From: Mesotaenium endlicherianum
Lineage: Eukaryota
Assembly: GCA_009602735.1 (NCBI GenBank)
Contig: WELA01003597.1
Location: 1-64,000, forward strand
DNA length: 64,000 bases
Reading direction: 5' to 3'
The position numbers and the translations under genes were made by a program. Position 1 is the first letter of the stretch. Each line of letters begins with the position of its first letter. The notes under the pieces were generated by a model. The model worked only from the letters and a program-made list of their open reading frames with translations, made no database searches and was not told the origin of the DNA. This document shows positions 10,132 through 36,490 of the stretch, in pieces.

Positions 10132-11588
10132 CCCCTCCCTTTCAGCTGAGGCGTCCCTGCCTTTCCGCTGAAAGCCTCTATCTCCTGGCCTTGCGGCTGG
10201 GGGTTTTAGGAAGGCAGTCAGGACATTCCCACCGTCCTGCCATAATCTCTTCTTTGCCAATGCAGAAGGTGTCCAACGGGCACTACACTTATCGCAAGTT
10301 ACCATTGCTTCTTGATCATCCAGCACTTTGCAGCTGGCACAAGGTGTGGCTGGCACCAATTCCTCGGGCACAGTCTTGATCGTAGGATCAATATTAGGCA
10401 AGTGGCACAGCGAGCAATTCTGCACATGATCTCTTATGGTTTTCCCATCAGAACCTTCCAGTTCCAGCACACCATTGTCGAACGCATGTTTCACGCGTAA
10501 GATTACTGCACCTGAACTGGTGTCAATGGTGGTCTTGGTCTGGCGCTTGCGGTAGGCGAAGTCTCCTTCCTGAATTTGCGTCATTTGCAGGCGGTAGCTC
10601 TCGTCTCGCGTCCTGGCGTAACGCTGTGTGTCTCTTTTTTGTGCAATTTTCAGATTGTCCAGGGCAGCAGGCATCATGTGCTCAAATAACGCCTTGCGGC
10701 GTATCATGACTTTTAGCAGTTCCTCAGGGTTGTTCAGGTCGTTCACCTGTCCGATCTCCTGCTTGATGCTGCTGGGCACAACTGGACTTCTGCCAAACAG
10801 AATTTGATAAGGCGAGTAATTCGCCAAAGCAGCTTGCTTGCTAAATTTGTAACCCATAATTAGCCATGGTAGGGCCAGATCCCAATCACGCTTGTCATGC
10901 TCAAGGCAAAATTTGCGCAAAGCAGACTTAATGGTTTGCACCATCCGTTTTGCTAGACCATCAGCTTGTGGGTGGTCTCTGGACGTAGTGCGATGGTCAA
11001 TGAAGCATTTATCTAAGACTTTCTGAAAACAACCTTGGAACTCAGATCCCTGGTCTGTCAGCACTTCTGCTGGAGCTCCATGACGTACAATCACACCGTC
11101 GAGAAGCGCTTCCGCGGTCCCCAAGCTTTCCTTAGCAGGTAGAGATACAACCTCTATCCATTTAGAAAAATGCACTTAGAAAAATGCTCAATCATGATCA
11201 TAATGTACTTGTTACTTCGCTTGGACAGCGATAGCTCTCCTGCGAGATCACAGCTCTAGCGGTATCCTAGGCCCATGATTGGCAGAGGTTGCAGGTGTGG
11301 GTGTTGCTGTGTGAAACCAGCCTTGACGCGATCACAACTTTGGCAGGCCTTGATCACATCCTCACACTGCTGCTTCATGCCCCTCCACCAGCAAGACAGC
11401 TCCAAAAGATTGTACGTCTTCTTGACACCATAGTGTCCAATATTCTCGTGCATTTCCTGCACCAGAGCTCGCCTTTTGGTGGGTTCTGGCACCAACTTCT
11501 CTTGACCAGTTTTTTCAATCTTGAAGAGGTTATTGCGTTTCCAGCAAAACAGTTTAGCTTGATGGCTCACCTGGTCCTTTTTGTTCAC
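10117..11588 (-). pseudogene. DDE integrase with HHCC zinc finger and C-terminal PHD finger (element 1)
   Basis: Motifs MHENIGHYG..CQSC, VLTDQGSEF and HPQADGLAKRMVQTIK. PHD start CASC..MVTCDKC is frameshifted. Confidence 0.9.
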
Positions 11589-11594
11589 CGATGA

Positions 11595-15399: not shown

Positions 15400-16370
15400 T
15401 GTCATAATTGTTTCCACCAACCAAGTCATAGAGTGCTGCCCAATCATGTTGCCAAAAATCTTTGCAGCTTCATCTGACCCTACAGCATCGACTATATGCC
15501 GAGCTATGTTGTCGAGTATCCCAAGGCATTTGGCCTTCTCTACCGCATTGGGCTCTTTCCAAACGGCGTTTCTTTCATGTATGTCTTTGACCATTCCTGG
15601 TCTACCTTCTATGAAGGCTCGGGATCTTGGATATGCTGTGAAGGTTGGCGGTACTACCCTTGGCTGACCTGGTTTGTTGATGACACACTGTGGATAGGAA
15701 TCCGTCCTAGCCACTGGTCTGGTATGCACCGCCAGTGCCTTTTTCACTGTCAATGCCATTGGTGATCAACGTGTAATGTCCTCCATCTCTCTCAGAACCT
15801 CAATAGACATGCCATTGGTCCAAAATATCCTGGCCCTATGGGATAATCCTCCATGCTTGGCGTCGTTGATTAGAACATGGTGGCCCAAAGTGGAGTCGAA
15901 AATCAGCCATGGCTCTCCCGGGTTCATCTGCTTGTAATCCATTCCTGGATGCACATTCTCAATCACGAACACTGGTGGGTAGTAGTGCTGTCGTTCTCGC
16001 AGCATACTGATGATTTTACCATCCATCCCCAGTGTTGTGCTCGTGGATCACTGAATCCCCTCCGATTTCCAGCTTGAGAAAACGGTTGATAAGGAAATCC
16101 AGCAAAGATCCAGTCAATCCTGTAGCCATACAGGTGTTCAGGCTTCACATCAATAATGTTGCCTCCAGCGATGCGCTCGACATTGCTATATGCGGGCGCC
16201 ATCCCTTTATAATAATGCATTTGCCGAATCTGACTCATAACTTCTTGGAATGCTAGAAAAGCGTGGTCGTCATTGTCCACATACAGGACTTTGGCCACCT
16301 GTATTCCTCGCTGGATCAATACTTTGGTCCCAGACCCAAGTCCGGCGAATAATTCTAACACCACTACTCC
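15400..16370 (-). pseudogene. C5 DNA cytosine methyltransferase domain within the pol region (element 1)
   Basis: Motif I LELFAGLG, IV GFPYQPFSQAG..GFSDPR (catalytic Cys replaced by Tyr), VI IENV, VIII HRARIFWTN, IX-like EPNAVEKAKCLG and X FGN, in canonical order across three frames. Confidence 0.92.
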
Positions 16371-16624
16371 CCTTTTGCGAAAAGGATCTTCCATCCTGAC
16401 AATGCCTTGCGGCAGCGGCTCAACTCCAGGCATCAGATTTGCAATGGAGGTATACTGGGTAAGAGACTGGCAGCAACTCTTGCGGGCCGCGGACCCTATT
16501 ACTCACGGTTTCCAACTGCTTCATGATTTGGGGTTGCCATACCAAGGGTGTTGGCATGTTGATGCTCGTATAGCCTTCCTCTTCTTGCTTCATGATGTTG
16601 TCGCAGGCTTCTGGGTACCTGTCG

Positions 16625-17060
16625 TTAATGCAGCAGCCTAGCAGTGTAGTTTGCTTCTCCTGTGCAAACCATCTTCACAGGAAATTCTCCTGCCGGCTGC
16701 CAATCTGTTGACTGGTAAGTCACCCTCTGCTTCCGCAGATCAATGACCATACCCAAGGGAATCAGTGCTTCTGTTCCCAAGAGAACATCATGGTTCTCTG
16801 CCTCCGTCACTGTGCATTCCATGAGTAGTGACGCCTCTTCAGGTTTTGAATTTACTGTGATTTTCACAAGCTTGCGAGTAATCCCTCAAAACTTTGATAC
16901 TTGTCCTGAGGCAGTTCTCAACTAGAAAGGACTCTCTTTCAGGTCCCTTGCCGTCAATCCTAGAGCTTTCACAGCTCAATTTCCCAAAATGACTGGCTGT
17001 GCGCCTGTATTCAACAGAATGTTGGGAGCTGCCCAGTTGTTGAAGGTTAATGCACCATCC
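16625..17060 (-). pseudogene. Aspartic protease remnant (element 1)
   Basis: ILLNTGAQPV (degenerate DTGA) and HDVLLG. Confidence 0.75.
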
Positions 17061-17124
17061 CTATTTTGCACTCTTGCGATATTAAAATTGGTGGGCAATG
17101 AGGCGCTATTTGCACCTTCCTCAG

Positions 17125-19117
17125 CTATATCCAGCTGATGTCCGGCTTCTTCAACCGTGAATGGATAAGTAATATGCAAATCAGCGAGAGAAAGCAAAGG
17201 AGCATGCTGGATTCGGTGTTCCACAGGGCCTTCAGCTTCTCCAGCGAAAAACTAAATGTCTTACGCGTCCCAGGCCTGGCTTGTCGTAGCTGCGAGATCT
17301 CATTTTCATCCAGAGTGATGCGAAAAGTCTGAGGAAGCTTCCCAGCATTCCTTGGCACCAGACGGTTGTGATCTGCTTGCTTGGCAGCTGTTGCGTCCAC
17401 AGCCTTTTCAAGCATCAGCTTCTCGCCTTTGCAGACGGTCTTTTCTGCAATATCTGCATCATAGTAGACATTGGAAGCGTTTAGTTTTGCAAACTGAGCT
17501 TTCAACTCAGCTATTTCTGCACTCATAGCTTCATACTTCTGGTTACCCTTGCGGTTACCAGAGGCACCCTTTACTTTCTTTTTTTTCTTGTCTGCCTCTT
17601 TTGTGGCAGCATTTGCCCAAGGCGGTTTTAAATTTGGGTTCTTAGACCAGCACTCATCTTCTGAGTGTCCCTTCTTGCTGCAATGTGCACATATCTATGT
17701 CTTGCTAGTAGATGATTGCTTAGCATCTGGGTACGGACAATCCCTCTTTTGATGTCCTGATTTCCCGCAATTCAAACAGCTCTCTGCTGTTTCAGCAGTG
17801 TTGGCATGCTCAGCAAACTTATGGAAAGACCCACTCTTTTTCTTAAACTGAAAATTAGAGCTGTTGGCCTTAGGCGGAGAGGATTCCTCCCTCCTCTCAA
17901 GAGCCATAAGCTTCCTGGAAGCCTCTTTGTACCACGCTTTACCTTCTCTGACAGTGCGTGCTATTTCAGCTGCCTCGTCAATGTCCCAGTCAATCCCGTG
18001 CTTTGCGGGACAGATGTGGCCTGACTTCACGATCTGTTTCCTTGCCCAAGCACAATAGAAACTTGTCAGCCACTATTCTGGACTCGTATATTTTTGCCTT
18101 TTTGGCGAGGTCTACCAATCTGGATTTAACCTTCATAACTGTCTCGTTCTTCTGACGGACAAAATGCACATAACGGTGCACCTTAAGACTGCGATCCTTT
18201 GAAAATCGTGCTTCAAGCAACTTAAAGAAACGCCGTAGACAATGCTTGGGGTCCAGCTGGTCATCTCCAACCTCCATATCCTTTCGACAGCTAGCCAAGG
18301 CTTGCACATGGCTTGCCTCTGTCGTGGCGCTATCGCCTCGCTGATCATGGAGAGGTGCAGCTCTGCGTGTTACTCGTTCCTGAGCATTAGCAATCTTTTC
18401 AGACAATTCTGCACACACTTTTCGCAACTCTGCGACAAAGCCGGTATCATCGCTCTGAGTAGCAGCCCTTCGCTGACCCTCAGTGACTTCCCCCATGGCC
18501 TCTGTTAATTCTTGTGTTAGTGCAGCTAGGTCTATGCTCTCAACAGGTGCAGTTGTCACTGCTCTTCCTGAAGATAGAGCAGACATTCGGGCTTTTGCAG
18601 CCTCTTTCTGGATTTTCAAATCCCTTGCCCTTTTCTGTTCTGCAAATGCCCATTCCTGGATGAGATTTTCATCCTTCCGGAATTGGCGATATAGCAGCAG
18701 GGCATCCTTGTCCAAGTACTGAACCACGCCTATGAATGCGACAGATTGCGTATAAGAAGAATCCTTCCGAATCTTCTCAAAGAATTCTGCCCAATAGATC
18801 TCATCAAACTCTTCAAAAGTGAGACAATTTCCGCTGGTTCGTCCGCTAAAACACTTTGCAGACAGCTTGAACTTAGGATTTTCATCCATCACCGGCCATT
18901 TTGAACGGTGACCAGGACTCAGTGACTCTTCCCCACACGTCTTGCTCTTTGCCCAAATCAGGTGCAAAAGCTCATGTGCTATCCAAGTTCTTCCGCTTGC
19001 GGAGATATGGCGGGACTTGTCTCTCAACGGTTGCTCACTCCACCGGTCGTCAGTATGCTCAGACGTCTCACTTCCTTGTGGACTCTGGCTAAAATCAAAA
19101 CCTTCTACAGGCTCCAT
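17125..19117 (-). pseudogene. gag with two CCHC zinc knuckles (element 1)
   Basis: CLNCGKSGHQKRDC (~17740-17780) and CAHCSKKGHSEDEC (~17650-17695). The block FVRQKNET resembles FFRRKNET in element 2 gag. Confidence 0.82.
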
Positions 19118-19270
19118 AGAGTGGTAGTGTCATCCACTCCTCAACCGCATATACAGTTGAATTTCTCCAGGTCCCCTTCCAGGTTGAACACCGGCAGCCT
19201 TCACAGGCCTCAATCCCCAACTGACTTGAGAATTCTTGTTCACCTGAACCAATCAACAAGTTCTCAGAAG

Positions 19271-20490
19271 TAGGACAAAAGTGTCATACTTTCGCACAGG
19301 CTTCCGCCCAAGTTGAGGATTTACAGAATGAACAAGTTTTGTGGTTTGCAGAAATCACGTCTAAGCAGCTTAACAGGCAAGGCCAGATTCAGAGAAAATC
19401 GCCCTTCAAGGCTTTCGCTTAACTCCCACAAGTCACAGCTTACAAAACTCTGAACTGCACATCTATGTTGGCCTGGTCTGAGCTCTTCACTCAACATCGC
19501 GCCTTAACAGCTCTTCACTGCTCGGCTGGGCTCACTCAGTTCTTCACTGAGAGCTTTACTTGTTAAGGCTACTCTCGCTATCAGCAATTCGACAATTGAG
19601 ATTTCTGAGAACTTGGAAACTAACACGGCACTCACCATTTTAAGTGTCTCTCGCACGCTTGTGGCGTTTGACCCAAATCTGTGCAAATCTCCTAACCGAT
19701 TCTATTTTGCAGCTCTCTACTTTCTACCAGCGAGACCTTCTCTTGGGAACTCCTGAGGTCTAACGTTTCTATGATACACTTAGGAAGAAATCTTCCAGCG
19801 TCGGCAGAAGCGTGGCGTCTCGATTCTTCAATGGACTTGGGAACTCCTTCTTCTTCGTGCTCCCTCTGCTTCTTCAACTTCCTTTGACAATGATGCGAGC
19901 CAAAATAAAGCAGCTTCAGGCAGGACTCGTGCCTTTCACAGGCAGCACACATTATCCTCTCTCGAGAATGCCAGTGCTTAGTCACAGTGCTGAACTTGCA
20001 TGCCGTCCTTAGCAGCTCTTCCACCGTTTAGGAGTTGTCATTCAGCATGCATGCGTGCATTGGGATTGTCGCGCGTGACTGCTTAGCCTTTCAGCTGACA
20101 ATCATGCCTATGTGGCTGGCTGGCAGCGTTAAGAATGAGCGCTCAAGCCGTGACTGGCCACATGCGGGTCTTGGCCGAGGTGGCACACAAAGCCTCTGCA
20201 ACATCATTGCTGTACTTGGCTTAGATAGCCAATTGATCAGTACCTTTCCGAGCATTTGCTGGTTCCCTACTCTTAGCCTTTTGGCAGACTACTCTGCTCA
20301 AATCCCCATCCATCCCTGGGCGTGGGTTTGGCGTGTCGTGACCACTTTGACAGTGATAACGACTTTGAAATGACCGCTGACTGAGATCTCTCGGTCCTTT
20401 GGTCGGTTAGTCAACGCTAACTTCCCGTACCTGGGCGGCCGTGGCTTGCGCTGCGCGTGCCGCACCGTAAAGTGGATAGCAGTCGCGACA
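19271..20490 (-). repeat. Repeat A1 (5' terminus of element 1)
   Basis: Minus start TGTCGCGAC. Abuts family X LTR sequence at 20491. Confidence 0.93.
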
Positions 20491-20646: not shown

Positions 20647-22100
20647 TATGGTAAGGACTAAGTCTCAAACTAGCAACTCTCGTGAAATGGAGGGTGAGGA
20701 CAACGATAACATTGAGGAAGGGCAGGACGAAAGCCGCGTTTTTTGACCCTGTACCTACTTAGAAACGCTGCACGATGTAGGAGCCAGAGAAGTTGCAGAG
20801 GAGGCAGCAGCTCTTGCTGCGGTAGCAATTCAGCTTGCTGAGGATGAGCGATTAGCGAAGGAGGTAGAAGAGGCAAAAAACAAGAGGGCCCCTGACGAAA
20901 GGACGGTGGAAGAGCAGATGGCAGAGAGGGCCAATCTCCGAAACCAACCTCCTGCTGTGCCTACTATTATACCTCTTTAGATTTGCAGACAATTGAATTC
21001 AACAGGCACAGTCGAAGCGGCAGCAATTGGGAATGCCGAAGCTGCTACCATTCGAGCTAATGTTGCTGCTGCGTCGTTTGCTGGGCTACCACCTCAGATT
21101 GTCAATCTGGGAGCATTATTTGTGCAAATGCAATCGCAAATGGCGAGCATGTGTGAGTCCCAACATGAGGACAAAAGGATCATGATGGCATTGCTGCGTG
21201 ACAGAGACCAACTCGATCTTCAAACCACTAGTGGTGGTGGCAGAGGACGAGTAAGCTTAAGCCAAAACCTCCTCAGGACTATGACACTGAGGAAAACAAA
21301 AAGTACTACTTGATCATGTTTCTTCTTGATGTTGAGCAGTGGCTGGAGAAATACCCATAATTGCAAGACTAACTTAAAGAATTATTCACACTGGTGCTCT
21401 ATTGAAAGGCAGTGCAGCAGACTGGTGGCTGTATTGGAAAGGAGAGCGTAAGGCTTAACAACTCGGTGACCCTACTTGGGTAGAGTTTGTCGAGAAGCTG
21501 CATGAGAAGTAGGATCTTATCAATCAGCAGGAGAAAGCTATCTATGCGATGATCTGCTTGACACTGAAGCAGACCACTTCAGTTGCTGAATTTGCCCAGA
21601 AGTTCCAGGAGAACATGATGAAGCAGCTAGAACTGCCTGAGCGGTGTAGGATAGCATACTTCAGGTATGGCTTGAAGTCCGAGGTCTCAGGTGATTTTGC
21701 TAAAAAGGAATATGAGAAAGTGGCTGACTTTATCCAGGATGCTGATGTCTAGGATCAGCAGGAGTTCAATCACAAGCGCCAAAGTAATGCTTTGGTGTCT
21801 AAGATTGTAAAAAAGCCACATGATTTTCTGCAATGCGATTGAAGGAGATCAAACTGAGGATGATCAAAGTGACGAGTATGAGTATAATGCTATACAGTCT
21901 AGAGGGAGAGGTGGATACTCTTGAGATGGCTATGGAAGAGGTGGTGGTAGGACTAAGCCAAGACCAGCCTCAGTAAACTCCATTTGCTTCCATTGCCAGG
22001 AGTTGGGCCACTACAGGGAGCATTGTTCTAGAAAGCACCTTCCAAAGGTCGAGAGAAAGGATCAGCCTTTAAAAGACAGCAACAATCAAGTCTACTGACT
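20647..22100 (+). pseudogene. Family X gag (retrotrans_gag region and zinc knuckle remnant)
   Basis: LKQTTSVAEFAQKF..RIAYFRYGLK and a knuckle CFHCQELGHYREHC near 21985-22026. Homologous to 4030-5191 on the minus strand. Confidence 0.8.
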
Positions 22101-22450
22101 GTGAGGATGCTAGAGATAGTGAGTCGCCACCAGCTGCCCTCGTAGCAGGTGTTATGGGTTCTGCTGAACTGGATTCACTATGCATGCGTGACAAACAAAT
22201 AAAGGAGACCATCAGCAATAAAGATCTTCAGAGAGTGCACACTCTGGATGATCTTATTTAACCTGATGTCCAATATTTCTTTGCTAAGTCAAGACAACAA
22301 TGTTGTGCATTATGAGGTCGGATGCGTCTGATTTATATAAGCAACACACAAGTGGGCAAGCAAGACTTGCTATGGTGAAAGCAAAAATGCATGCGGTCTT
22401 AGGGCCAAAAAGAAGGTTAGCTGTCAAATGTTTCAATTCCCCCCCAGCTT

Positions 22451-23870
22451 TCAGCATCCAGCTGATGAGCTGATAATACTATCGCTAGCCAACTTTGCAC
22501 AGTCACTACAGAACCAGTCGCCAACGGGAACGCGCTCCAGTGGGGAGTCGAGGCAGCCAATGTGGAAACCAAGATTGCAGTTGTCGCAGAGCAGCATCTT
22601 GGCCTCCTTGCCAGGGCTATGGCAGATCTGGCACGCCCTGTCCTTGGGCGGGCGCGCGTCGCGGAGACGAACTTGCACATCAAGGTAAGGAAGGTGGCAT
22701 GGTTCACAGTTCTTCATGTGGTCCTTGTGAAGACGACCATCTGCGGCTTCCAACTCCAGTACTCCTGACGCCAAGGCACGCTCGACGCGCACGATGATCG
22801 GCAAGCTGCTGGTGTCGAGGGTGTTCTTCGTCTGGCGTCGCAGATACACGAAGTCACCTGCGAAAAACTGCAACACCCGAGGACGATAGGCTCCTCCACA
22901 AGCCATGGCATACTTCAGCGTGTCACGGTGCTAAGCGATACTGAGGTTGTCCATGGCCATGGGCATCAGGCGCTGGAACAGTTGTGCACGCTGCCCGACA
23001 AGAGCACTCCATGTGTCGAGACTATCCAAGTCCAGGACACTCTCAGCCACGGTCCTGGCTGCGGCTGGCAGGATCGGCTGGCATCCATAAAGGAGAAAGT
23101 AGGGAGAATACGAGGTCAAGGAGGCCTGGCGATTGAACTTGTATCCCATAGCAAGCCACGGGAGTGCGTCGTCCCAGTGGGTGCTGTTGTGGGTCAGGCA
23201 ATACTTGCCCAGCCCCAGCTTGACGGTCTGCACCATGCGCTCTGCAAGGTCGTCAACCTGGGGGTGATTGCGGGAGGTGGTGCGGTGCTCAATTATGGAG
23301 CGCTCTAGCAGCTTCTGAAAGCTGCTCTGGAACTCCTTGCCCTAGTCAATCAGTACCTCAGCGCAGCCGCCAAAACGGCTCAGGACCTGATCAAGGAACG
23401 CCTGCGCGATTCCCTCACTGGCCTTATTGGGCAAGGGCACGAGCTCGATCCACAAGTGCTCAATCATCACCAAGACGTAGAGGTTGCCTCGACGGGACTT
23501 GGACAACTCCCCAGCCAAGTCCAATGACCACCTGTAGAACAGCCCCTGAATGGGCAGGGGGTTGAGGGCAACAGTGCATGCTGTGAAGCTCGAGCGCACG
23601 CGGTCGCAGAGAGTGCAGCTGCTGACGACGTCGGCCACGACCTTAGCCATGCCGTGCCACCAGTACTCGAACTGCAGTAGGCTGAGAGTGCCCTTGATAC
23701 CAAAGTGTCCAAGGGCCGGGCCTCATGAACGGTGCGCACCAGCTGGCTGCGTATAGCAGGCTCAGGGACCACCGAGAAGGAGCCGTCGGCCATCACACGC
23801 CTCAGCCGACCCTCCATGAAGACGAAATCTCGGGTGCGCTTGAGGACGCGGTCACGCTCCCTCGCGTCCA
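22451..23870 (-). pseudogene. DDE integrase with C-terminal C4HC3 PHD finger (element 2)
   Basis: CTLCDR, WSLDLAG, AEVLID, MVQTVK. PHD CQIC..MLLCDNCNLGFHIGCLDSPLERVPVGDWFCSDC. A G-rich PPT follows at ~22438-22446. Confidence 0.93.
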
Positions 23871-23873
23871 TGT

Positions 23874-25508
23874 CTAGCGCCAGCTCCTTAGTGGCGACGT
23901 ACTGCAGCAGCGCGGCAACGTCCCACACGTCCTCAGGCCCGCAATACCAACTGTCTTGCTCGCTGCTGCCGCCCACGCCAGACGCCTCGTGTTGACCACC
24001 ACCAGGTCGGGGTCGATGAGCCCCGCGGGCCTCGAATCGCCGTCCATCGTGAAGGCCAAGAAGGCTGCCGCGTGCCAGGCCACTGGCTCGTCCTCGTGAT
24101 GCCGGACCACGGTCAGATCCCTGGAGGAAGGCAGCAGATTGCGGCTGACGCCGTCGGCGTCCATGGTGGTCGAGCCGGGGCGGTGGTGCATGTCAAACGT
24201 GTACTCCTGCAGAATGAGTGCCCACCGCGCGTACTTGCCTGTAAGGCGCTCCGACGTGATGAGCCACTTAAGCGGCTGATGGTCGATGACGAGACAGAAT
24301 TGGGTGCCGTAGAGGTAGTGCCTAAAGTGCACGATAGCCCAGACCGCTGCCAGACACTCCCCCTCATAAGAGCCATAGTTGGCCTCGGCGCGATTGTTGC
24401 TGCGACTGTCGTACGCCACCACGTGCTTGCAAACGTTGTGCTCCTGCACCAGCACTGCTCCCAGCCTTGCCTGCACCCAGTCGGTGTAGAGGATAAAGGG
24501 CTTAGTGTGGTCAGGCCACCGTAGCACTAGAGTGCTCACCAACAGCTCCTTGAGCTTATCTAACGTTGCCTACTGCTCTGTCCCCCATACGTAGGCAAAC
24601 CCCTTTCGCAGCAAATCGTTGAGTGGCTTAGCGAGCTCGCTAAAGCCAGGCACAAAGCGGCAGTAGTAGTTGGCGATCCCAAGGAAGGCCCTCAGCTGTA
24701 AGATGTCGATAGGCGGCGGGATGCCTGTGATGGCCAAAATCTTGGCCAGCTGCGGTGCCAATCCGCTGGAGGAGAGGAGATGCCCGAGGTACTCCACCTC
24801 TCGGGTCCCAAAGGTGCACTTCCCTGGATGGCACTTGAGCCCAGCGGCCTCCAAGCGGTCCACGATGGCGGTAATGTGCGCCATGTGCTCCTCGAACGTC
24901 TCATTTAAGACAAGCACGTCATCAATGTAGCACCGGGCAAAGGATAGCCCTGCCAGCTCCTTATCCATGACCCGCTGGTAAGTAGCTGGAGAGTTCTTCA
25001 GCCCGAAGGGCATCACCCTCCACTCGTAGAGGCGCTGTGCCCCCCAGAACGTTGTCTTGTGCTGGTCCTTCTCCGTAATAGGTATCTGGTTGAAGCCTTG
25101 CCTCAAGTCCAGCATCAAAAACCATGTGCACGTGCCAATGTCATCGAAGATCTTGTCAGGGGTAGGCAGAGGATATCTGTTCTGCTCGGTAACCTCGTTG
25201 AGCTTATGATAGTCATCGCACATCCTCTTCTCATACCAGTTGCCTGAGGCATCCTTCTTGGCCGGCATGACCGTGGGGGCCGCGTAGGTAGAGGAGGACT
25301 CCCGAATGAGCTGGTTGTCCTCCAGCTTGCCTGTCTGCGTGCTGATCAAGACATCCGCAAAGTGACTGTAGCGGTATCGCTTTTGGAAGATGGGTACGTC
25401 GGACGTGAGGCGGAGCCTCATGGGGTCGCCAGTGTAGCGCCCCAAGTCATGCATGCCGCTGGCAAAGCAGGCACTGCGCCGGGCATCAAGCATCTCCATT
25501 AGCTGCAC
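23874..25508 (-). pseudogene. Reverse transcriptase and RNase H (element 2)
   Basis: Motifs LDLRQGF, MPFGLKNSPA, YIDDV, YTDW, NYGSYEGECLA and ADGVSR. Confidence 0.95.
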
Positions 25509-25766
25509 TGCCTGCTTCGTGGTAAGGGTCCCCCCCAGCTTCCATGTAGGGACTGCTAGAGGTGGTGCTTGCCCTGCACCTGTCGCCTCTTGTGCTACTG
25601 TTGCAAAGCTCTGCCCCCCTGCTGGCGCCGCCTGTCTGCTGGCAGAGAGCGGCTGCCCTGCACCTGCTCCTGCTGGAACCTATCCTGCGGCTGCCAGCTG
25701 ACCTGTAGGAGCTGCCTGCTGGCATGCAGGAGGAAAAAGAAGTGGGGAGCGATGCGACCCCCTAGC

Positions 25767-26350
25767 GTCGTTTGGCGTCGCAGGTACACGAAGTCACCTG
25801 CGGAAAACTGCAACACCCGAGGACGATAGGCTCCTTCACGTGTCATGGCGTACCTCAGCGTGTCAAGATGCTGAGTGATATTGAGGTTGTCCATGGCCAT
25901 GGGCATCAAGCGCTGGACTAGCTGTGCACGCTGCCCGATAAGAGCCCTCCATGTGTCGGGACTATCGAAGTCCAGAACACTCTCAGCGACGGTCCTGGCT
26001 GCGGCTGGCAGGATCGGCTGGCGTCCATGAAGGAGAAAGTAGGGAGAATGCGAGGCCAAGGGGGCCTGGCGACTGAACCTGTATCCTATCGCCAACCACG
26101 GGAGTGCGTTGTCCCAATGGGTGCTGCTGTGGATCAGGCAGTACTTGCGTAGCCCCACCTTGACGGTCTGCACCATGCGCTCTGCAAGGCCGTTAGCCAG
26201 GGGGTGATCGCGGGAGGTGGTGCGGTGGTCAATCATGGAGCGCTCTAGCAGCTTCTGGAAGCTGCCCTGGAACTCCTTCTCCTGGTGGGTCAGCACCTCA
26301 GCGCAGCCGTCAAGACGGTTAAGGATCTGATCCAGGATCGCCTGAGTGAT
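25767..26350 (-). repeat. Ectopic duplicate of the integrase core (diverged copy of ~22828-23410)
   Basis: Direct nucleotide colinearity. AEVLT..HPLANGLAERMVQTVK..GDFVYLRRQT is in frame with the MTase. Confidence 0.9.
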
Positions 26351-27225
26351 GCCATCCACCCGGGTCAAATGCGGCGGGAAGCCCATGGCGCGCTCCATTT
26401 CTATGACGCGCGGCCGCTTGTAGAGGCCAGAGGAAAGGTCAATGAGCATGCCGCGAACCGCGCTGATGTAGACGGCGCTGTCGTAGTGGCTGACGAATGT
26501 TGGCAGGGCGCGCGTGACATCACCGAGCACCTCACACTGGGCTTGCGATGGATGGGGCAAAGCTGTAACGAGCTGGGCCAGCCGTGTGACGTCGAGGATG
26601 GAGTCGACGTTGCGGGCGTGGCGTGGGTGCGCGGCGGCGAGGGCCTCCAGCGTGCCTGGCATGGCTAGGTTGGTGAAGTAGGCGCGCACGCGGTGGGTGA
26701 AGGACCCAACCTGCGCGGCGTTGATGACGGCCTCGCGTCTGAGGTAGCTGCTGCAGAGCTCAAAGTTGGCGCGAACATTGGCGCGCTCGTCGTTGCGCAC
26801 CGCCACATTCTCCAAGACCCACGCAAAGGAGTGAGGTGGCTGGCGCGCCTCAACCACTGTGAGGACGCAAAGAAGGTGCCAGAAGAGCGCCGTGCGAGGG
26901 TCACTGAGGGCACCACCGCGGCCTGCGATGGAGAAACCCGGGCACTCCCAGCCAGCAATGACGAGATCCACGGGGCCGAGGCGAGTCACGTGCTCGTCGG
27001 TGATGTCGCGGACGTCCAATGGCTAGTCGGTCTGCGCGTAGCGAAAAGCGCAAGTGAGAAATAGGTCGGGGAAGCGCTTGTGACAGAGGGCCATCTGGCG
27101 TCGGGCAACTTGCTGCGCCTTAGGTTCAGGGTCGACGTAGACGTAACGTTGGACGGGAATGCCAGCCTACAAGGTAGCCAGCAACCCAGTGGCGATGTTG
27201 GCAAACAGCTCCACCAGGACGATGC
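26350..27225 (-). pseudogene. C5 DNA cytosine methyltransferase domain, DNMT3-like motifs (element 2)
   Basis: LVELFANIA (degenerate motif I), DVRDITDEHV..LGPVDLVIAGWECPGFS (III/IV), LENV (VI), HRVRAYFTNL (VIII), EMERAMGFP (IX). Motif X is replaced by the integrase duplicate. Confidence 0.92.
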
Positions 27226-28237
27226 CGCCAGACGGCTCATCCAGCTGGTCCGTGTAGATTGGCGTTGGCGGTGGGCAAAGGCCTATAGCAAGATTGCTTG
27301 GCTCCGCCGTTGGCGGGTACGTACGGGCCACGCTGTACTGGTGAGGGGCCATGCGGAGTGCAGCGACTGCACGGTTGGCGTAGTCGCGCGTAAGAAGCAA
27401 AAGAGGTCCAGCCAGTGGCTGAGGCTGGTCGACGCGCGCGTGAGCCTGGTACTGTCGCCACCTGTCCTGAGCGTCCTGCAGGATGTGAAAGCGTAGAGGT
27501 GTCAAGCGGGACTGGGCCATGCGCACGCAGGTGAGCTGCCACCTGCGCCTAGCCTTGCGGTCCTGCGCATGAGAGGCTGCGTACGCGAGCTGGTCCATCA
27601 CAAGGCGCTGTGGCAGGTACGGGTGTGGGTCGTAGAAGGCCTGCTGGCGGTGGTGGAACGGGAGGTCCACTGGGTTGGCGCTGCCGGCGGGCTTCGTGTC
27701 GTATATGAAGTGCCGGACGCGCACTGGCTAGCAAGGCGCCAGCTGCACCTGGGCATGGGGTTGCGGGTGGAGCGGCAGCTGATCGTTTGGACGCCGGTAG
27801 CGGCGCGCCAAGTCGTCGACGGCTGCAGATCGGCGGCCAGGCCTAGAGTCGCATGCGCGGCTGCTGGTGTGGGCCACCTTTGAGGGAGGCAAGCTGCCAG
27901 GCCCGTCTCTGGCAAAGTGACTGCGAGGGAGCGCTGGCCGTCGATCGTAGAGCGCGTGGGTGGCGTACGTGGTGGACTGCGGGGCATCCTCACGACCGTC
28001 CACCTCGCAGTACGGCGGGGTGGCTGCTCGATCACGGCTGTCGCGGTAGGGTGGAGTGGCGGCTTGATCTTGGGTATTGCGGTAAGGCGGCGTGAGAGAC
28101 CGAACACGTCTGGGCGGGGGCGTGAGATTGCGCTCGCTGCGCAGACTGCGCCTGAGCTGCGGCCAGGTGACAGCTCCCAGCCTGCCGCGTAGTCCGCGTT
28201 CCGGCTCTGGACGGATGACTGAGCACACAACGGGTAC

Positions 28238-28731
28238 TGTAGTGAAACAGATAGATTAAGTACTTATTAAAATAGAATACTTTATCTATTCAAGACAAGG
28301 ATCTTTGAACACAAGTGGTAGCTTCTTGAAAGAGAGATGGCTTCTTGAAAGTTAATGTATTTCTGGAATTTGGCACGTACAAGAGTGATCTGGAATGTCT
28401 TTCTCTGTTCTAGCTCTTGTTTATATACTTGTTACATGAGTAATTTCTAGAAAGGTGTATGTTGATGTGTTGGCACCCGACACATCCCAAAACTTGCCAC
28501 CTCTTTCTAGAATAATGTACACGTGTCCTTTTGACCTAAAAATGGCACATTTGACTTTTGCCACATGGAGTTCTTCTAGGTCCTTCCTCTAACTTCAAAA
28601 ATAAGGTTCAAAGGACATAAACCAAGTCATTAGAGTACCTATTCACACTTGAATCCACACAATACTACTCCATATATATTTGAAAATATTAAAATATATG
28701 CAACTAATATATTATAACTCAAATTACTACA
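28238..28731 (-). mobile_element. Solo LTR (family Y) inserted in element 2
   Basis: TGTAGT...ACTACA with 5-bp TSD GGTAC (28233-28237 and 28732-28736). Reverse-complement homologue of 40353-40855. Strand is relative to that copy. Confidence 0.92.
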
Positions 28732-30559
28732 GGTACGGCGGTCATCGCTGTGTCGGGTGTGCTAACAACCGCGCAAGCCGCGCTGGCGCGCGCGTCGGAG
28801 GTGGCGGAGGTAGCAGCGGGGAAGACGCGAGAGCTGGACATGTCATCTTGGGCACCTCTGCCATACAGCCTGTGCGTGAGGTCGCGACAGCTGGCGTCGG
28901 TCGAGCAATCATGCTCGGGTCGACATCGTGGGCCTGCAGCACAGCGGTAGGCTTTGCCAGACCTGGCGGACGCATGCCGGCTGAACCTTGGCGGGCCGAC
29001 CAAAGAAGAGCAGCCGAACCATCTGGGGGTCCTGTCAGTGTGCTGAAGCCTGGGGGTCCTATGGGCCTACAACGGATGCGAGCAACGAGGGTGACGGACC
29101 GCGCCTGTAACCCAGTCGGCTCCTCATAGAACTCCTCTGGCGCGCTTTCATACGACTCGTCGTTAGTCAGCGGATTGTAGGCCGCCTGACGCATGGTGGC
29201 CTCCTCCAAAGCGGTTGTGCGGTGGTCAGAGTCGTTTGTGTGCATCGACAGCGAAGGTGGCCGGGACGCCATCCGAAACTGCATGGCCACTTCAACTGGC
29301 ACCTCTTGTCGCAGGCGGACGTCGGATCGGGCGTCGGACGAGCGAGCTCTCTTACGAGGAGGCGGCGTCGAGGCGAGCGGTAGGCTCCTGCCTGCAACAG
29401 CGGCGAGGNAAGGTTCAAAGGACATAAACCAAGTCATTAGAGTACCTATTCACACTTGAATCCACACAATACTACTCCATATATATTTGAAAATATTAAA
29501 ATATATGCAACTAATATATTATAACTCAAATTACTACAGGTACGGCGGTCATCGCTGTGTCGGGTGTGCTAACAACCGCGCAAGCCGCGCTGGCGCGCGC
29601 GTCGGAGGTGGCGGAGGTAGCAGCGGGGAAGACGCGAGAGCTGGACATGTCATCTTGGGCACCTCTGCCATACAGCCTGTGCGTGAGGTCGCGACAGCTG
29701 GCGTCGGTCGAGCAATCATGCTCGGGTCGACATCGTGGGCCTGCAGCACAGCGGTAGGCTTTGCCAGACCTGGCGGACGCATGCCGGCTGAACCTTGGCG
29801 GGCCGACCAAAGAAGAGCAGCCGAACCATCTGGGGGTCCTGTCAGTGTGCTGAAGCCTGGGGGTCCTATGGGCCTACAACGGATGCGAGCAACGAGGGTG
29901 ACGGACCGCGCCTGTAACCCAGTCGGCTCCTCATAGAACTCCTCTGGCGCGCTTTCATACGACTCGTCGTTAGTCAGCGGATTGTAGGCCGCCTGACGCA
30001 TGGTGGCCTCCTCCAAAGCGGTTGTGCGGTGGTCAGAGTCGTTTGTGTGCATCGACAGCGAAGGTGGCCGGGACGCCATCCGAAACTGCATGGCCACTTC
30101 AACTGGCACCTCTTGTCGCAGGCGGACGTCGGATCGGGCGTCGGACGAGCGAGCTCTCTTACGAGGAGGCGGCGTCGAGGCAAGCGGTAGGCTCCTGCCT
30201 GCAACAGCGGCGAGGAGCTCGTGGGCCCTAGCGGCTGTGGCCACTGCCGTGGCAGAGACGTCGGCGACGGCGGTCGCTGCTGCTGTAATCTGGCGCATTG
30301 CGGCGTGCTGTGCTGCATAAATGTGCACAAACTCGTGGGTCTGCGCTGTCAGCAGCTCCGCCTGCTGCTGTGGGGTAAGGCGGAGCTCCGCCCTCGATAG
30401 CTCCGGCTCCTCACCCTGGGGCTGGAGCAGGTCGGCCCCGACCAAAACGTTGTCCTCCTCTGAGCCACCTTTGCGCGTCTGGGTGACGCCGTGCCGGTCC
30501 TCGTCGTCGCCGAGCGCGACGAAGCCGTAGAGAATTGCTGACGTGGGTCGCCGGTCCAG

Positions 30560-30930
30560 GATGTCCAGCGGCAGTGAGGCCTTGTGCGTACCACCTGTGC
30601 GCCAGTCGGGCCGATAGTGTGCCCGCTCCGTCCAGTTATCCACCGCGGCTTCAATGGGGAAGAGCACGTCCTGCCCCAAGAGGACGTCGAAGGTGTCAGA
30701 GCGCGTCACGAGCGCGTGACGATGTATCGTCGTCTCATCCTCGGTCCCGGGCCAAAAGTTGAAGACGAGCGCCAGCCAAGTGCGCCCCATCACGGACTCG
30801 GATGTACCAGTCGCAGTGTTAATCCGCATGGGCAAATCCTCCAGATCAGCTGAGGAGAGACCCAGCTGCCAGAGATAGCTGTGACTGATCAGAACTGGCA
30901 GGGCGCCGGTGTCAAACATAATGCGCTGAG
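30560..30930 (-). pseudogene. Aspartic protease (element 2)
   Basis: MFDTGALPVLIS ... FDVLLGQDVL. Confidence 0.85.
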
Positions 30931-32779
30931 GGGCCTACTTGTTAACCAGCACGATCCCTTGCGCGTTGTCCATAAATGCAGCGTTAGGGCTGCTGATCAA
31001 CCTGCGCTTGTACGGGGGTCGGGCGGGAGCTGAGAGCATCGCAGTGGAAGCTCCTACTGTCGGCCTATCTGTGCCCATGCGCGCACCAAGAGCGCGGGAA
31101 CGAAGCATCAGCTGGGTGGCCTGCCGGGTCGCCTACAGCGTCACCCCGAGCTTAGCAAAGGACACCGTTGGCATGCGTTGCAGCGCCAGCGATTGCACCT
31201 CGGCGTTGAGCTGCACCGCCATCACTGGAGAGACGAGTGCGTGCAATGTCGGCGAGACTGGCGCTGCTGGCGGGTCCAGGACGCAAAAGGAGCGGGGCAG
31301 ACGCGGGGCTTCCTCCGTACGCCATCCCTGGTCGGGACCATTGCGCTTGGGTGTGCCTGCTGCTCGCCCTGCAGCCGCCACGAGTGTGCGCTCGCGAGTC
31401 GCCTCGTGCGCTGCCGGACCACTACCAAGTGGCCGTGTTCGTGCGCAATAGACTAGGTCTTGGGACGGCGCGGCTGTCCTCCCTGGCGCACCTGGCGCCG
31501 CTGCGAGCAAAACTGCCAATGCAAACTCTAGCGATGGCGCTGGCGCCCTGGCGAGGATGGGCACCTTTGTGGGAACTGGCGCAGGCGTTGGCACGGCGGC
31601 AGGGTCTAGAGGGACCTCTGCTGGGCCGCCAGGTGGCGCTCCAGGGTCGCTCCCGAGGCGGACTAGGCGGGCTGCCACTCCGTTGGCGCTCTCGCTTGCA
31701 TGGGCTCCGTGCGATGCTCGGGCGTCTCGTTTCCGAGCGAGAGGATCCTGCGCAGCCTCGACAGCGCAGCTTGCACGGATGCCGGGGTTTTGTGCGCAGC
31801 CAGGATTTAAGCCCTGGCTGAGCGACGTCGTGCCCGAGCCGTCCGGCGGCTCCCCGATGATTGGGTTGTACAACGAGGTCGGGAATGCCCCCCCCTGATG
31901 GGTGATGGCGGCCCCCTCTGCCGTCCGCGCACGTGCCGGTTCGAGACACATGCGCGCGCCAAGTGGCGGCACCTGGGAGCAGCTGCTAGGTGGAGCTGCG
32001 CAGGCTGGCGTGCCAGAGGCGAGGAGACCAAGTCGCCGGAACAGACCTCGCGTCGCCGTCCCTGGCGCCTGGCCACAGGCGATGTTGCCGGTGCTGGTGC
32101 GTGGCACCACGGATGTCGTACGCGAGCCACGTGGCGCCAGCTGCTAGAACCTGCTGCTGGCAAACAGCAGCAGGCGGCTGTGTTCCTGCAGCTCAATCGT
32201 GCGCAGGTCTGCACACGCGTGCGCGGTGCGAGTGCCGCAGCTCGTCGCGGCCTGCGCAGCTGTCTGGCGGGCTCGCAAGGGGACGTCAACTGTTGCTGGG
32301 CCGGACATGGTCGGCCTGCTGTCAACAGCAAGGCCGGGCAGGCCAGGGTCGTCGCCGGCGTAAATGCTGACTGCGCTGGCTTTGGGGTCGGCTCGTTGCA
32401 GGGGCGGACTGTGGCATCGGTTGGCTGGGCTATGCCGGATGGACATTTGCCGGTTATCTGCCAATTGGGTCGCTCCCGCCTGCCACTGGCAGCAGCCTGG
32501 GCGGGGAGCGTGCAGCTGGTAGGGGCGTACAGCGCTCCGCACGCGTCGTAGCCGGCGCTTGCGTCGCAAGCGTGTAGGCGGGCGATCTCGGCCTCGGCCG
32601 CTAATAGCGCGTCGCTGAGTGCGTCGTAGCTGCAGTGGTCCTCGCTGGGCGTCATCACGGCGTTGGTCGTGGTTGTGGCCGCTGTCATCGGGCCGTCCGT
32701 CAGTGCGCGGATTGCGCGTGCCCTGCTGGCCTGCCGCGTCGGAGGTTCCGTCCCGAGCGCGCCCGTTCTCAAGGTCGCG

Positions 32780-33862
32780 CTTCTTTTAAAGGCAGACGAT
32801 CTGCAGGTGGCCGGCTTTGCCACATTAGGTGCAATCGCCAGGCTTGCTGTTCTGCGCGAGCGTGCAGTCACGGCGAGAGTGGCCCATCTTCCCGCAAGAC
32901 CAGCAGGGGTCGCTCGTTGTGGCGGCCATAGAGATACGGCCACGCGGAGCTCCGCGCTGCTGAGTTTGCTGGGGCAGCTGCGAGCGCTGCGGCTGCTGCT
33001 GGGGCTGGCGTGCAGGGACTGGTCACATCGTGGAAGATGGCAGCACCGCAACCTCCTGTCGTACGCCTATGGATGCGAGGCCGACACGGTTGCTGATGTT
33101 GCTCCGTGTGGCTGCCAGGCTTTGCTTCTCAACTGAGAGGTAAGCGTCCTCCAGTGAATATTTGGAATCCTTGCGGTCGATGAGGGGGACGATAGCTCTC
33201 TCCCTCAGACGCGGCTCCACGGCACGCAAGAAGACCTCCGCTGTCTCTCGGTCAGTGACCGTGCCCACGTCTCTGCGCAGGTGGGTCAGACGTTGGTACA
33301 TCATGCAAATCGTCTCGTTCTTGCGACGGAAGAAGTGGTGCAGCTCGAACACCTTCTCCTCTGTGGCGGCCTGGAACTCTTGTCTAAGGACGTCTCAGAA
33401 GGCCTGAACTGGGTCAGCTAGTGGGTCTGAACGTCCCCCAACAGCTCTGTTCACGTGAGGATCTTGGCTGCCTTCTCTCGGTAGATGTCGCGAGCCTCGT
33501 AGAGAAGACGTAACGCATGAGCGTGCCAAACACCTGGCACTTAGTGAGCGCGGGCGTCTTGAGCTTAGCGTTCTCGAATTCAGCCTCAAACTCAGAGATA
33601 GTGTTGTGCAGATCACAGGTGCCTGGCCTGCCGCTGAAGCGGAAGAGAAAGGCCCTGTCTACCTTCATATCCTGGTTACCATGGAGTACAAGGGATCGTA
33701 GTGAGTCCACTGTAGAGGTGGCTCGTGGACGGCCATAGGCTGAGGGGGCACCGGGTGCTCCTCCTTAGGGGGATCAGTGATGGTACTGAGATTTGAGTCT
33801 GCGTCCTCGCCACTAACCCCTTCGTAGTAAGGCTCATAAGATAGCGCACTACGGGTAGGCAT
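32780..33862 (-). pseudogene. gag with two CCHC knuckles (element 2)
   Basis: CWSCGKMGHSRRDC (~32863-32905) and CT*CGKAGHLQIVC (~32792-32833). FSGR and FFRRKNET blocks are shared with element 1 gag. Confidence 0.8.
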
Positions 33863-34661
33863 ACGCTGAAGTCCCTAATTGCTTGCAGGCAAAGAGAGAT
33901 CTTTCTAGAAGTAGGGAGTGTGTACTCTCCAAAGAAAGCACCTCAAGACTGTGATCTGGTAGGAAAACAACTGATGAAGTCTGGCCCAAAAGATCACTGG
34001 AAGCACATCGTGATCTTCAAGAGTAGTCCTATGGCAGGGTTTAAGCTGTAAGCTATATACTCCCTGCAAAACCGGCGCTGAAGGTGGCGGATTCAAAGCA
34101 CACAATCACACTAGGAGGCTCTCCTAGGTCCACAAAAGTGAAGGTAAGGCAAGTACTAGCTTTCCTATTGGCTAAGCACAACAGACACCAATCATATATA
34201 GTGCAAAGAAGAGAATGCATGACTCTCGTTAGCAGAGTTAACCTCGACCAATGCTACCTAGATAATGCCTCAAAAGTGGATCTGAAACGTAAGGTCAACT
34301 TCCTCTAGGAATGAGTGATGCAGTCACCAAGTTATAGCTCTAATGGTGCTCATATACTATGCTAATGCATGCTAAGTGTACTTTATCAAACTCGCGGATT
34401 TGTGTGCTAATAGCTAGAGGTCCTTGAAGTCGCGAAGAGCCAACAATGTGACCTTTGGGCACATTGAGTCACAAAGTGGCCTTCGGTGAAGTCCACTAGG
34501 GGCCGGTAGGTGGCGCGGACTAGATCGCGAATATCTCGCTCGACACTTGACCAAATGGCGCGTATTGCGTGAAGCAAGGTCAAAATCTGCCCTCCTAGGT
34601 CGACGATCGACGCAAGTGTGTCTCGGCTGGGGCGATGGTCCCGACCTAATGAGTCATGACA

Positions 34662-36490
34662 ACAATTCGAAAGTCAGGACTAAAACGCTTACATTTGAGG
34701 TACTCAACACTGGCTCTTATGATCTCGTGCTAGGCAGGTCCTGGCTTAACAGACATCAAGCTCAAGTGTGTTGGAGCAGAGGTACAGTTAAAGTGAGAGG
34801 AGCTAGTGATGGGCAGACTAACTTGGCACCCACCAGTGCTCTTCCTCTTGTCCTGTATGGATGGCAAATGAAGGAAAAGAAGAGGCTTCCAAGAGGATGC
34901 AAATTGTTGAATGCAATGGAGTTCATCAAAAGCTGGAACCAGAAGGAAGACAAAATGGTCTGTCTGCTCCTAAAAGAGGTACCTCTTCAACCTAAAGAAG
35001 TGGTTGAAAAAAAGGTGAGCCCTCTGGAGCACCCTACTGCTGCAAAAATTGTTGCTCAGTATACTTATTTTATTAACATGCCTCCAGGATTGCTCCTTAA
35101 GAGGGCAGTAGATCTTAAGATTGATTTATTACCTGGGAGTCAGCCACCCTGGCAACGCACTTATGGCTTGTCAGATGTGGAGAGCGATGAGTTGAAAACA
35201 CAGATTGCAGAGCTGGAGGAAAATGGTCACATTTCTCCCAGTAAATCACCTTGCGGCGCACCCATCATATTTGTAAAGAAGAAGGATGGCAGTATGCGTA
35301 TGTGTGTGGATTCCAGAGCTCTTAACAAACTTACAGTGTAGAACAAGTATGCTTTACTCAGAATCGAGGACTTGCTTGATACCTTATCTGGTGCTGAAGT
35401 GTTCAGTAAGATAGATCTCAAGAGTGGTTATCATCAAATCAAAATTGCCGAGGAAGATGAACACAAGACTGCCTTTTGCACACGTTGTGGACACCATGAG
35501 TTTAATGTGATGCCATTTGGCCTGAGTAATGCTCCTGCAACCTTCATGGGTGCTATGAATGACATTTTCGGGCCTTACTTGGATTAGTTTGTGCAAGTTC
35601 TCGAGGATGATATCCTAATTTTTCCTAAAAATGAAACTTAGACAATAATGGACACTCTAAGAAAGAATCGGTTATATGCTAAGTGTGAATTTTTTAAGGA
35701 GAGTATTGAATTTTTTAGGACACATTGTGAGTGAGGAAGGCATCAGGTTGGATCCCAAGAAAGTCTAGACCATAAGGGACTGGCCAGCACCACAGTCTGT
35801 CGCGGTAGTTAGATCATTCCTCGGGCGGGCTAATTTCTATAGGCGATTCATTGAGAATTATTATACAAAGGCCAGTAAATTGACTGACCTTACTAACGAC
35901 ATAGGGTATGTGTGGGGGAAAGAGCAGCAAGCCTTTCAGACCCTTAAAGATGCTCTCTTTTCTGCCCCAGTCTTAGCTGTGTATGACCCCATCAAACCTG
36001 TGCAGGTAATTACTAATGCTTTTGACTTTGCCTTGGGTGCTATTTTGTTGCAGCCTGCTGACAAAACCACAAAAGATTGTAAGGTAAAGCAAGAGTGGCA
36101 CCCTGTGCTGTATGAATATATGAAATTTAATCCAGCTGAGATTAATTATATTGTGCGTGATAAAGAGCTGCTGGCTATCATACATGTGTTCAAACAGTAT
36201 AGAGCATAATTCCATGAAAAAGCTTTCAAGGTAATTACAAATCATATAGCACATAATTACTTTCAGAAGAAATCCAAGCTGTCGAGGAGGGAGAACCGCT
36301 GGAGCCAGATGCTGGAGCAATTCCAAGTCCAGAATGACTACAAACCAGGGAAGTTGAATCCTGATGATGCACTCTCTAGAAGACCTGACTTGCAAGACAG
36401 TTTTACAACCATGTAGTATGCCAACATGGGCTACCCTCCAATATTATCTCGGGCAGAGAACCAAAATTCACCTCTAAAACCTGGAGAGCT
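34662..36490 (+). pseudogene. Family X pol: protease C-half, RT, RNase H, start of integrase core
   Basis: [62 protein letters not shown]. The integrase zinc-finger region is deleted. Confidence 0.92.

Follow-up and report, generated by a model that had tools for sequence, protein, structure and literature searches.

An LTR-less Ty3/gypsy element of A-internal-B form in Mesotaenium endlicherianum and its relatives with split terminal repeats

Introduction

In the textbook view, elements with long terminal repeats (LTRs) integrate linear complementary DNA (cDNA) at its two ends, and one-LTR or two-LTR circles are mostly dead ends. The window analysed here, the first 64,000 nucleotides of contig WELA01003597.1 of Mesotaenium endlicherianum (GCA_009602735.1), contains an element, E2, which has Ty3/gypsy domains and a target-site duplication (TSD) and no LTR pair. 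E2 consists of a segment A, an internal coding region and a segment B (A-internal-B, or A-int-B), and it raises the question of how an element without paired LTRs came to be inserted. Three forms of such elements are found within this one window, A-int-B-A-B in element 1 (E1), the solo unit A-B in E3 and A-int-B in E2.

E2 as an LTR-less A-int-B element is a real feature, and the copy is dead. The sequences give somewhat better than an even chance that it is a decayed Ty3/gypsy copy inserted directly from a one-LTR circle or from cDNA cut at both attachment sites (att). The terminal repeat of its lineage is likely B followed by A, with the integrase site in the middle.

Results

Ends and target-site duplication of E2

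On the minus strand, E2 starts with TGTCATGAC at 34661 and ends with GCACAACA at 22301 (Table 1), and these ends differ from those of E1, TGTCGCGAC and GCACGACA, solely by transitions at CpG, as the first-pass annotation had stated. The flanks carry an exact 4-bp ACAA duplication and have no match at 5 bp. The same annotation had fixed the boundaries by this duplication and by restoration of a protease reading frame in the element that received the insertion. The duplication holds and the frame is unconfirmed, because no frame of the left flank yields the N-terminal half of the protease (best -1.2 bits), so that the boundaries rest on the TSD and the termini. The C-terminal half is found in the right flank (36.6 bits, profile positions 93-132), in an ordinary Ty3/gypsy element outside E2's clade. 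Related contigs in assemblies of sequencing runs show no loose end at 22301, and none at 34661 among the matches listed; those at the 5' end of E2 include many related sequences. E2 is present in four DNA runs of one sample and in no RNA run among the matches listed.

The absence of a credible direct repeat between the ends, also proposed at first reading, is sustained. The best local alignment of the two ends has a score of 26, a gappy match of ~50 bp which is equalled in 7/200, 8/100 and 7/50 shuffles, while the positive control, E1's B against the B of E3, scores 250. Comparing the window with itself by BLAST likewise reveals no repeat that joins the two ends of E2. The purine tract G7AA, taken as the polypurine tract (PPT), ends at 22437 and leaves the 136 bp to the right end that had been estimated, and the final motif of this segment B, TCCGAC-N8-GCACAACA, is common to E1's B end. 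The inner end of the single A was placed by likening the motif CCCTA/CTTCTAG to the A end of E1, GTCCTA/CTTCTGAG. In the RT (reverse transcriptase) tree, which has a midpoint root, E2 belongs to another family than E1 within the same clade (19 rows, support 97/92). The description of E2 as a sister of E1 is thus right as to the clade, while A and B have no nucleotide similarity to E1 beyond the termini. The word TATATAAAT lies at 22330-22340 on the minus strand, ~35 nt short of E2's B end, and TATA-rich tracts are also found within B of the metagenome subfamily.

The ends of E2 match each other as an ungapped inverted repeat at 15/21 positions, as had been counted, a value equalled by 9/200,000 shuffles for a stretch of 21 positions whose length was picked after the fact; positions 9-21 alone match at 10/13 (50/200,000 shuffles). 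The same match is just 10/21 in E1 and in the solo unit at 48760, so the inverted match of E2 is real, yet no family trait. It could suggest that E2 moved as DNA by Ginger-like cut-and-paste, with its own integrase acting on short imperfect inverted ends, and TGT...ACA ends, a 4-bp TSD and a Gypsy-type integrase are indeed Ginger traits (PMC2836005). This is extremely unlikely. Ginger terminal inverted repeats, as described in the same source, measure ~40-270 bp and Ginger elements have no RT or RNase H, whereas E2 has protease, RT, RNase H and a PPT, and the relatives with the same ends mostly bear a B-A-B tail.

Repeat layouts and duplications in the relatives

The relatives of E2 are the best 80 of at least 576 confirmed metagenome loci fetched with an RT profile. 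They have a GC content of 33-44%, and the longer ones have the same domain order as E2. Homologs of the lineage are also found in Closterium, Marchantia and Calypogeia. The 3' layout is B-A-B in 28 of the 80 rows (24 distinct), B-A in 3 (2 at a contig edge) and B alone in 16 (13 distinct, 10 with a full-length B), and 33 have no recognisable 3' repeat. The A-int-B form therefore accounts for ~10/36 resolvable 3' ends, about a quarter. Because B precedes none of the 29 distinct 5' copies of A, neither a conventional BA-int-BA copy nor an A-B-A-int-B copy is seen. B measures 106-200 bp in the metagenome relatives. Duplicate loci (L008, L017, L023, L024, L029, L036, L046, L077) were removed before the counts, loci with a truncated B (L027, L047, L055) were removed from the A-int-B tally, and L045 and L074 from the TSD tally.

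Eighteen elements have both ends intact (16 loci, E2 and E3). The 4-bp TSD is exact in 11 of them and within one mismatch in 15, against 0/306 crossed pairs, and no TSD of 3, 5 or 6 bp is found among the 18. Three of the four A-int-B loci with both ends (L014, L042, L053) have an exact 4-bp TSD. This is the form that the first-pass annotation had read in E2, and the tally of forms, run in the relatives, places it beside A-int-B-A-B, with no paired-LTR copy and no 5-bp TSD among them. That E2 is an ordinary LTR element, which lost its LTR pair by deletion or misassembly and has a 4-bp match by chance, is the least probable of the explanations considered. E2 is indeed rearranged, among other things by an 806-bp duplicate at an N, and the frame of the empty site is unconfirmed; however, the same form has exact TSDs in three independent loci, no conventional copy occurs among the 80 loci, and both ends match the att halves of the clade.

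Another relative, L139, is an algal-like contig in a cyanobacterial bin, with open gag-protease-methyltransferase and pol frames. Among the 17 genome-collection matches, it alone has the full domain set of the five examined that reach 8 kb. L157 shares the bin of L139 and ends in B-A-B, and its B1 and B2 are identical and both carry 5 differences from the B of L139.

Other layouts and sequences were met beside these. L049 has an extra inverted B and A copy (12595-13862) before its B-A-B tail, and L079 has a B-A tail without a second B (12712-13184), followed by 2.9 kb of other sequence. The proteins P0270 and P0273-P0279 have methyltransferase-region similarity in one chain with integrase and a PHD finger, and most of them have RT and RNase H as well. 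Three of them, P0273, P0274 and P0279, group as a long-branched subclade within E2's RT clade. The viral collection contains 58 distant RT relatives of 7-10 kb, with 30-38% identity.

Joints between B and A

The joint between B and the following A (B/A) is a 2-nt spacer within a palindrome, and the spacer is GC or one of the transition products AC, GT and AT in 19/26. Joints of this kind are found in E1 (GCACGACA-GC-TGCCGCGAC), in L139 (CACGACA-GC-TGTCACG) and in L157. The palindromic joint is likely the integrase site, judged from its sequence, and retroviral integrases are described as able to cut palindromic LTR-LTR junctions (PMC1180852, PMC1905944). The palindromes contain CG and CHG sites. 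In its own organism, the E1 family has B/A joints 20490->9837 in 4 contigs in each of two DNA runs from one sample; the joint 20473->9837 is the window's own B1/A2 and was not counted, and the window's own A2/B2 may be one of the two A/B contigs.

In the relatives A and B meet flush or with small indels, and the A/B joint of L052 holds ~137 nt of pre-PPT sequence together with the PPT. In E1 the A2/B2 joint is flush, and B1 begins directly after the purine tract. Microhomology was considered as a general cause of the A/B joint and rejected, since it is present in the L139 family and absent in E1 and in the main subfamily.

Candidate priming signals and the probable position of the LTR

The PPT stands directly before B in E2, in E1 and in the relatives. 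No primer site for a tRNA end starting with TGG is seen after A. The best 12-nt complement of the post-A sequence is instead a fixed site within A in 19/23 and 5/5 loci of two subfamilies, and the complementarity is kept with different sequence in E1 (13 bp, its primer stretch 19257-19269 right after the A1 end) and in L139 (12 bp), so that the signal is met in E1, in L139 and in 24/28 loci. A TATAAA-type word lies mid-A, ~30 nt upstream of the arm, in 8/10 loci shown, all of the main subfamily. The A end of L139 predicted from the pairing matches the A/B joint later found in L157. These features make up, in the relatives, a self-priming signature of the type described for Tf1 (PMC4600332), which would be used in priming.

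Because the self-priming signal lies at the end of A in the relatives, B+A is likely the real LTR and has a palindromic att inside it, and since the purine tract abuts B, the plus strand would start there. If these signals are used, RT would make B-A-int-B-A, and the A/B joint would therefore be the place where two cDNA ends were joined; its small indels and the PPT captured in L052 agree with this.

Proposed formation of the A-int-B form

The replicating form would be A1-int-B1-A2-B2; this layout is observed, and replication would proceed by that form alone. Transcription would start inside A1, and the 5' end of the RNA would fold onto the sequence after A1 and prime the minus strand as in Tf1, for which the relatives provide the complementarity and the TATA word. 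The plus strand would start from the PPT, whose position directly before B is observed, and give the product B-att-A-int-B-att-A. The cDNA ends, the end of A and the start of B, would then be joined to form the A/B joint. The DDE integrase would cut the palindrome CACGACA-GC-TGTCRYG, lose the 2-nt spacer and insert with a 4-bp TSD; palindrome, spacer and TSD are observed and the cut is postulated. A two-LTR circle would in this way yield A-int-B-A-B, and A-int-B, as in E2, would result from a one-LTR circle, from a nicked circle or from cutting at both sites. The A-int-B form would be a dead end, because the downstream A needed for strand transfer is absent.

The other origin offered at first reading was recombination between B copies. 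E2 would have been inserted as A-int-B-A-B and would later have lost A2 and one B by B1xB2 recombination, and E3 would have arisen through A1xA2. This is somewhat doubtful, and a substantial possibility all the same. The same ends and TSD are predicted, as the circle or double-cut route and the recombination both retain the TSD; the B copies lie close together, E2 is old and rearranged, and solo AB repeats of Ngaro are attributed to recombination (PMC8547959). Age tests lean weakly to direct formation. In small samples (9-12 against 21-27), three proxies, lesion density (p=1.0), terminal branch (p=0.19) and mean distance (p=0.59), are without the age excess in A-int-B copies that recombination would leave, and these copies make up 2/7 of those with a terminal branch <0.07 and 7/23 of the older ones (the branch of L003, among the 23, is inflated). 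Against B1/B2 identity, the calibration of the terminal-branch and CpG proxies is weak (p=0.10 and 0.054). L027 and L055 were kept in the lesion-density and CpG test, and L049 and L071 were omitted from the tree behind the branch and distance proxies. A B of 106-200 bp would also be short for recombination that frequent.

Direct formation from a circle or doubly cut cDNA has several observations against it. CpG depletion is stronger in the A-int-B copies (0.32 vs 0.40, p=0.009; in the main subfamily 0.31-0.32 vs 0.38, p=0.008-0.02), as would be expected of older copies derived by recombination. From a symmetric two-LTR circle, A-B-A-int-B and A-int-B-A-B should arise equally often, and the former is seen in 0/29, so the circle model requires an unexplained bias for one att, the left att alone seemingly being used. 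In old copies B2 is not significantly nearer to its own B1 (own best 3/19, p=0.21). L043, the fourth A-int-B locus with both ends, has no TSD. As to E2 itself, no B/A junction of its own family is seen, and its self-priming partner in A matches at 8.5/12, tied with four other sites and not above chance. L139 is closed on itself by a 127-bp overlap, and this loop may be a collapsed repeat in the assembly and not a circle. As for the bias, the left att is nearer to a cDNA end, since B is the shorter segment in all families seen, and this nearness could bias loading.

A replication like that of PAT or Ngaro would copy the whole A-int-B-A-B from RNA, close the circle by a B1-A2 splint and inherit the A/B joint, and A-int-B would be a copy-choice deletion. 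The repeat layout is identical (PMC5890265, PMC8547959), it is one-sided as described for Ngaro, and B2 in old copies is, as said, not significantly nearer to its own B1. This explanation is very unlikely: the PPT is directly before B1, the self-priming site is directly after A1 and the TATA word is mid-A; the A/B joint has indels and PPT capture; B1 and B2 of L157 share their variants; and no tyrosine recombinase (YR) was found in the ORFs scanned.

Direct formation of E2 can be extended to a wider proposal, a streptophyte self-priming Ty3/gypsy lineage with circular cDNA as its normal substrate and an att opened inside the LTR, in which the element's own methyltransferase marks one palindrome so that the other alone is cut. 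This proposal, read from the sequences, is unlikely. If it were true, a quarter of the insertions would come from one-LTR circles and be gag-pol elements that lack LTRs and have short inverted ends, the LTR-less copies would be a ready stepping stone to Ginger-like DNA transposons, and att methylation would explain both the purpose of the enzyme and the missing A-B-A-int-B form.

Coding content and decay of E2

The coding region had been described as a complete gag-pol, which it is not, as its domains are spread over many open reading frames (ORFs) with stops and frameshifts. Protease, C5 cytosine methyltransferase (DNMT), RT, RNase H, integrase zinc finger and PHD domains are detected, and the D2 motif of the integrase reads D-stop. 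The gag of E2 has no Pfam match and is recognised solely by homology upstream of the protease in related loci. Within the 12.4 kb lie a nested solo LTR, an 806-bp duplicate, which is likely an assembly artefact, and a 589-bp integrase fragment that is 88% identical to 22828-23416. This fragment is joined in frame behind the methyltransferase, where an intact relative has the C-terminal part of the ORF, and it is possibly the result of an RT template switch. With the inserts subtracted, ~1.9 kb of extra GC-rich sequence without Pfam match (27272-28237, 28732-29408) lies between protease and methyltransferase, where L139 has ~70 codons.

Other features of the window

The nested solo LTR is one of two copies, 93% alike, of a conventional AT-rich solo LTR (~500 bp, TGTAG...CTACA), at 28238-28731 and 40353-40855, with the 5-bp TSDs GGTAC and CAGGA, which serve as an internal control for ordinary LTR insertions. 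A tandem array at 5396-8521 has 378-bp units that are 99.8-100% identical, ends at the N at 8523 and is related to 249-667 and 47413-47752; it is a recent amplification or an assembly artefact. An ORF at 37268-37996, inside a retroelement-rich region, matches DDE_Tnp_1_7 (IS4/piggyBac-like transposase). Host genes are found at 51544-54207 (+), with a C2-domain ORF followed by phospholipase-D-like ORFs (named by reading, the second piece without Pfam match), and at 55325-58030 (-), with PHM7_cyt (CSC1/OSCA-like). These C2 and PHM7_cyt domains are plant-like and, taken with the homologs in Closterium, Marchantia and Calypogeia, point to a streptophyte host. Two RNA runs of the same species label have ~200 mostly partial reads on 9837-25700.

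Table 1. Coordinates of E2, its parts and neighbouring elements in the 64,000-nucleotide window
Feature	Positions	Strand	Remarks
E2, whole element	22301..34661	-	A-internal-B form, TG...CA ends
TSD of E2, left copy	22297..22300	+	4 bp, ACAA
TSD of E2, right copy	34662..34665	+	4 bp, ACAA
Segment A of E2	33912..34661	-	~750 bp; inner end inferred from motif
Candidate primer-binding site of E2	33900..33911	-	self-priming type
gag-like region	33023..33764	-	N-terminal part, stop-interrupted; tblastn matches upstream of protease in related loci
Aspartic protease	30503..31024	-	DTG motif kept
Tandem duplicate	28603..30215		806 bp, 99.9%; split by single N at 29409
Nested conventional solo LTR	28238..28731		494 bp, TG...CA, 5-bp TSD GGTAC; unrelated insert
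C5 cytosine methyltransferase domain	26378..27271	-	degenerate (motif PC reads EC)
Extra integrase fragment	25768..26356	-	589 bp, between DNMT and RT
RT and RNase H	23874..25679	-	YIDD intact
DDE integrase	22451..23794	-	H2C2 finger and C-terminal PHD finger; stops, D2 interrupted
PPT of E2	22437..22445	-	G7AA; edge uncertain by 1-2 nt
Segment B of E2	22301..22436	-	136 bp; ends TCCGAC-N8-GCACAACA
Host element, left of insertion	21937..22300	+	CX2CX4HX4C knuckle by translation, no Pfam match
Host element, right of insertion	34666..36386	+	protease C-half, RT, RNase H
E1, whole element	8524..20490	-	A1-int-B1-A2-B2 form
E1, A1	20490-19271		
E1, self-primer arm inside A1	19603..19615	-	13 nt; fully complementary to 19257-19269
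E1, B1	10131-9839		preceded by PPT
E1, spacer	9838-9837		GC
E1, A2	9836-8617		
E1, B2	from 8616		similarity ending near N at 8523
E3	48760..50335	+	solo A-B unit of E1's family; 4-bp TSD CCAA

Discussion

In the lineage of E2 the integrase site seems to lie within the repeat and the true ends of the cDNA seem to be joined to each other, and A-int-B is the product expected from a one-LTR circle. The intact-looking L139 makes it directly testable whether circles are a normal integration precursor, and the lineage also offers a test of the purpose of an element methyltransferase. Paired TG...CA LTRs with a TSD are used as a search filter (PMC6317226). Both forms would be missed by such searches, and the lineage is therefore probably under-annotated in algae and bryophytes. 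The literature searched lies mostly outside subscription journals and Repbase reports; within it the LTR-less form is nowhere described, and the layout appears just in a figure legend of 2018; the term KnitGypsy is found in that single paper (PMC5890265). The analysis adds the tally of A-int-B copies with their TSDs, a signal for self-priming, the absence of the mirror form and tests of age.

Comparison with known systems

The closest layout is that of KnitGypsy-Dnmt3 from Klebsormidium nitens (de Mendoza et al. 2018), for which the legend of Fig. 4c names DIRS-like repeats and Gypsy domains, and the legend of Fig. 1 gives the DIRS-like arrangement as A-coding-B-A-B (PMC5890265). It has Gypsy domains and an intronless C5 methyltransferase in the polyprotein, a layout that E1 and related loci match; the PF00145 methyltransferase is present in E2, E1 and L139. 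The difference is that E2 is A-coding-B, while A-coding-B-A-B is found in E1 and 24 distinct relatives, and the accessible text of that paper has nothing on a TSD, on an att palindrome, on the mode of priming, on a mechanism or on an A-int-B form. The one K. nitens RT found, P0071, which may or may not belong to KnitGypsy-Dnmt3, falls outside E2's 19-row clade, and K. nitens is absent from the 40 homologue matches listed.

Ngaro and PAT elements share split direct repeats, A1-ORFs-B1A2B2, and solo AB units (PMC8547959). Such repeats are found in the relatives, whereas E2 has A and B once each. As far as that source describes them, these elements use a YR, whereas the elements described here have a DDE integrase, a PPT, TG/CA ends and 4-bp TSDs, and no YR family is seen in the ORFs scanned from E1, L139 and E2, which for E2 cover most of those of at least 100 aa. 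Tf1, Sushi and Tcn1 share the complementarity of the sequence after the 5' repeat to a stretch inside the repeat (PMC4600332, PMC6317226). They are described with ordinary paired LTRs, whereas E2's clade has DNMT and PHD domains and in the RT tree stands apart from those Ty3 proteins that bear a chromodomain.

In two-LTR circles of foamy virus and HIV-1, integrase cuts a palindromic CA...TG junction internally (PMC1180852, PMC1905944). There, according to these papers, the palindrome arises when the cDNA ends are joined and integration yields a normal provirus, whereas in the lineage of E2 the palindrome would be encoded inside the LTR and the joined ends would not be the att. Ginger1 and Ginger2 share the Gypsy-type integrase, TGT ends, 4-bp TSD and lack of an LTR pair (PMC2836005). 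Compared with the Ginger elements of that source, E2 has inverted ends of 21 bp that are imperfect, with a match that decays beyond them, and keeps gag-protease-RT-RNase H and a PPT.

Ty3/gypsy elements have the order protease-RT-RNase H-integrase with a DDE integrase, which is degenerate in E2 and intact in L139, a PPT before the 3' repeat and a TSD of fixed length of 4-6 bp, here 4 bp, all of which are found in this lineage. The paired direct TG...CA LTRs of that class are missing from E2 and from all related loci. E2 would work like a Ty3/gypsy element with a displaced att.

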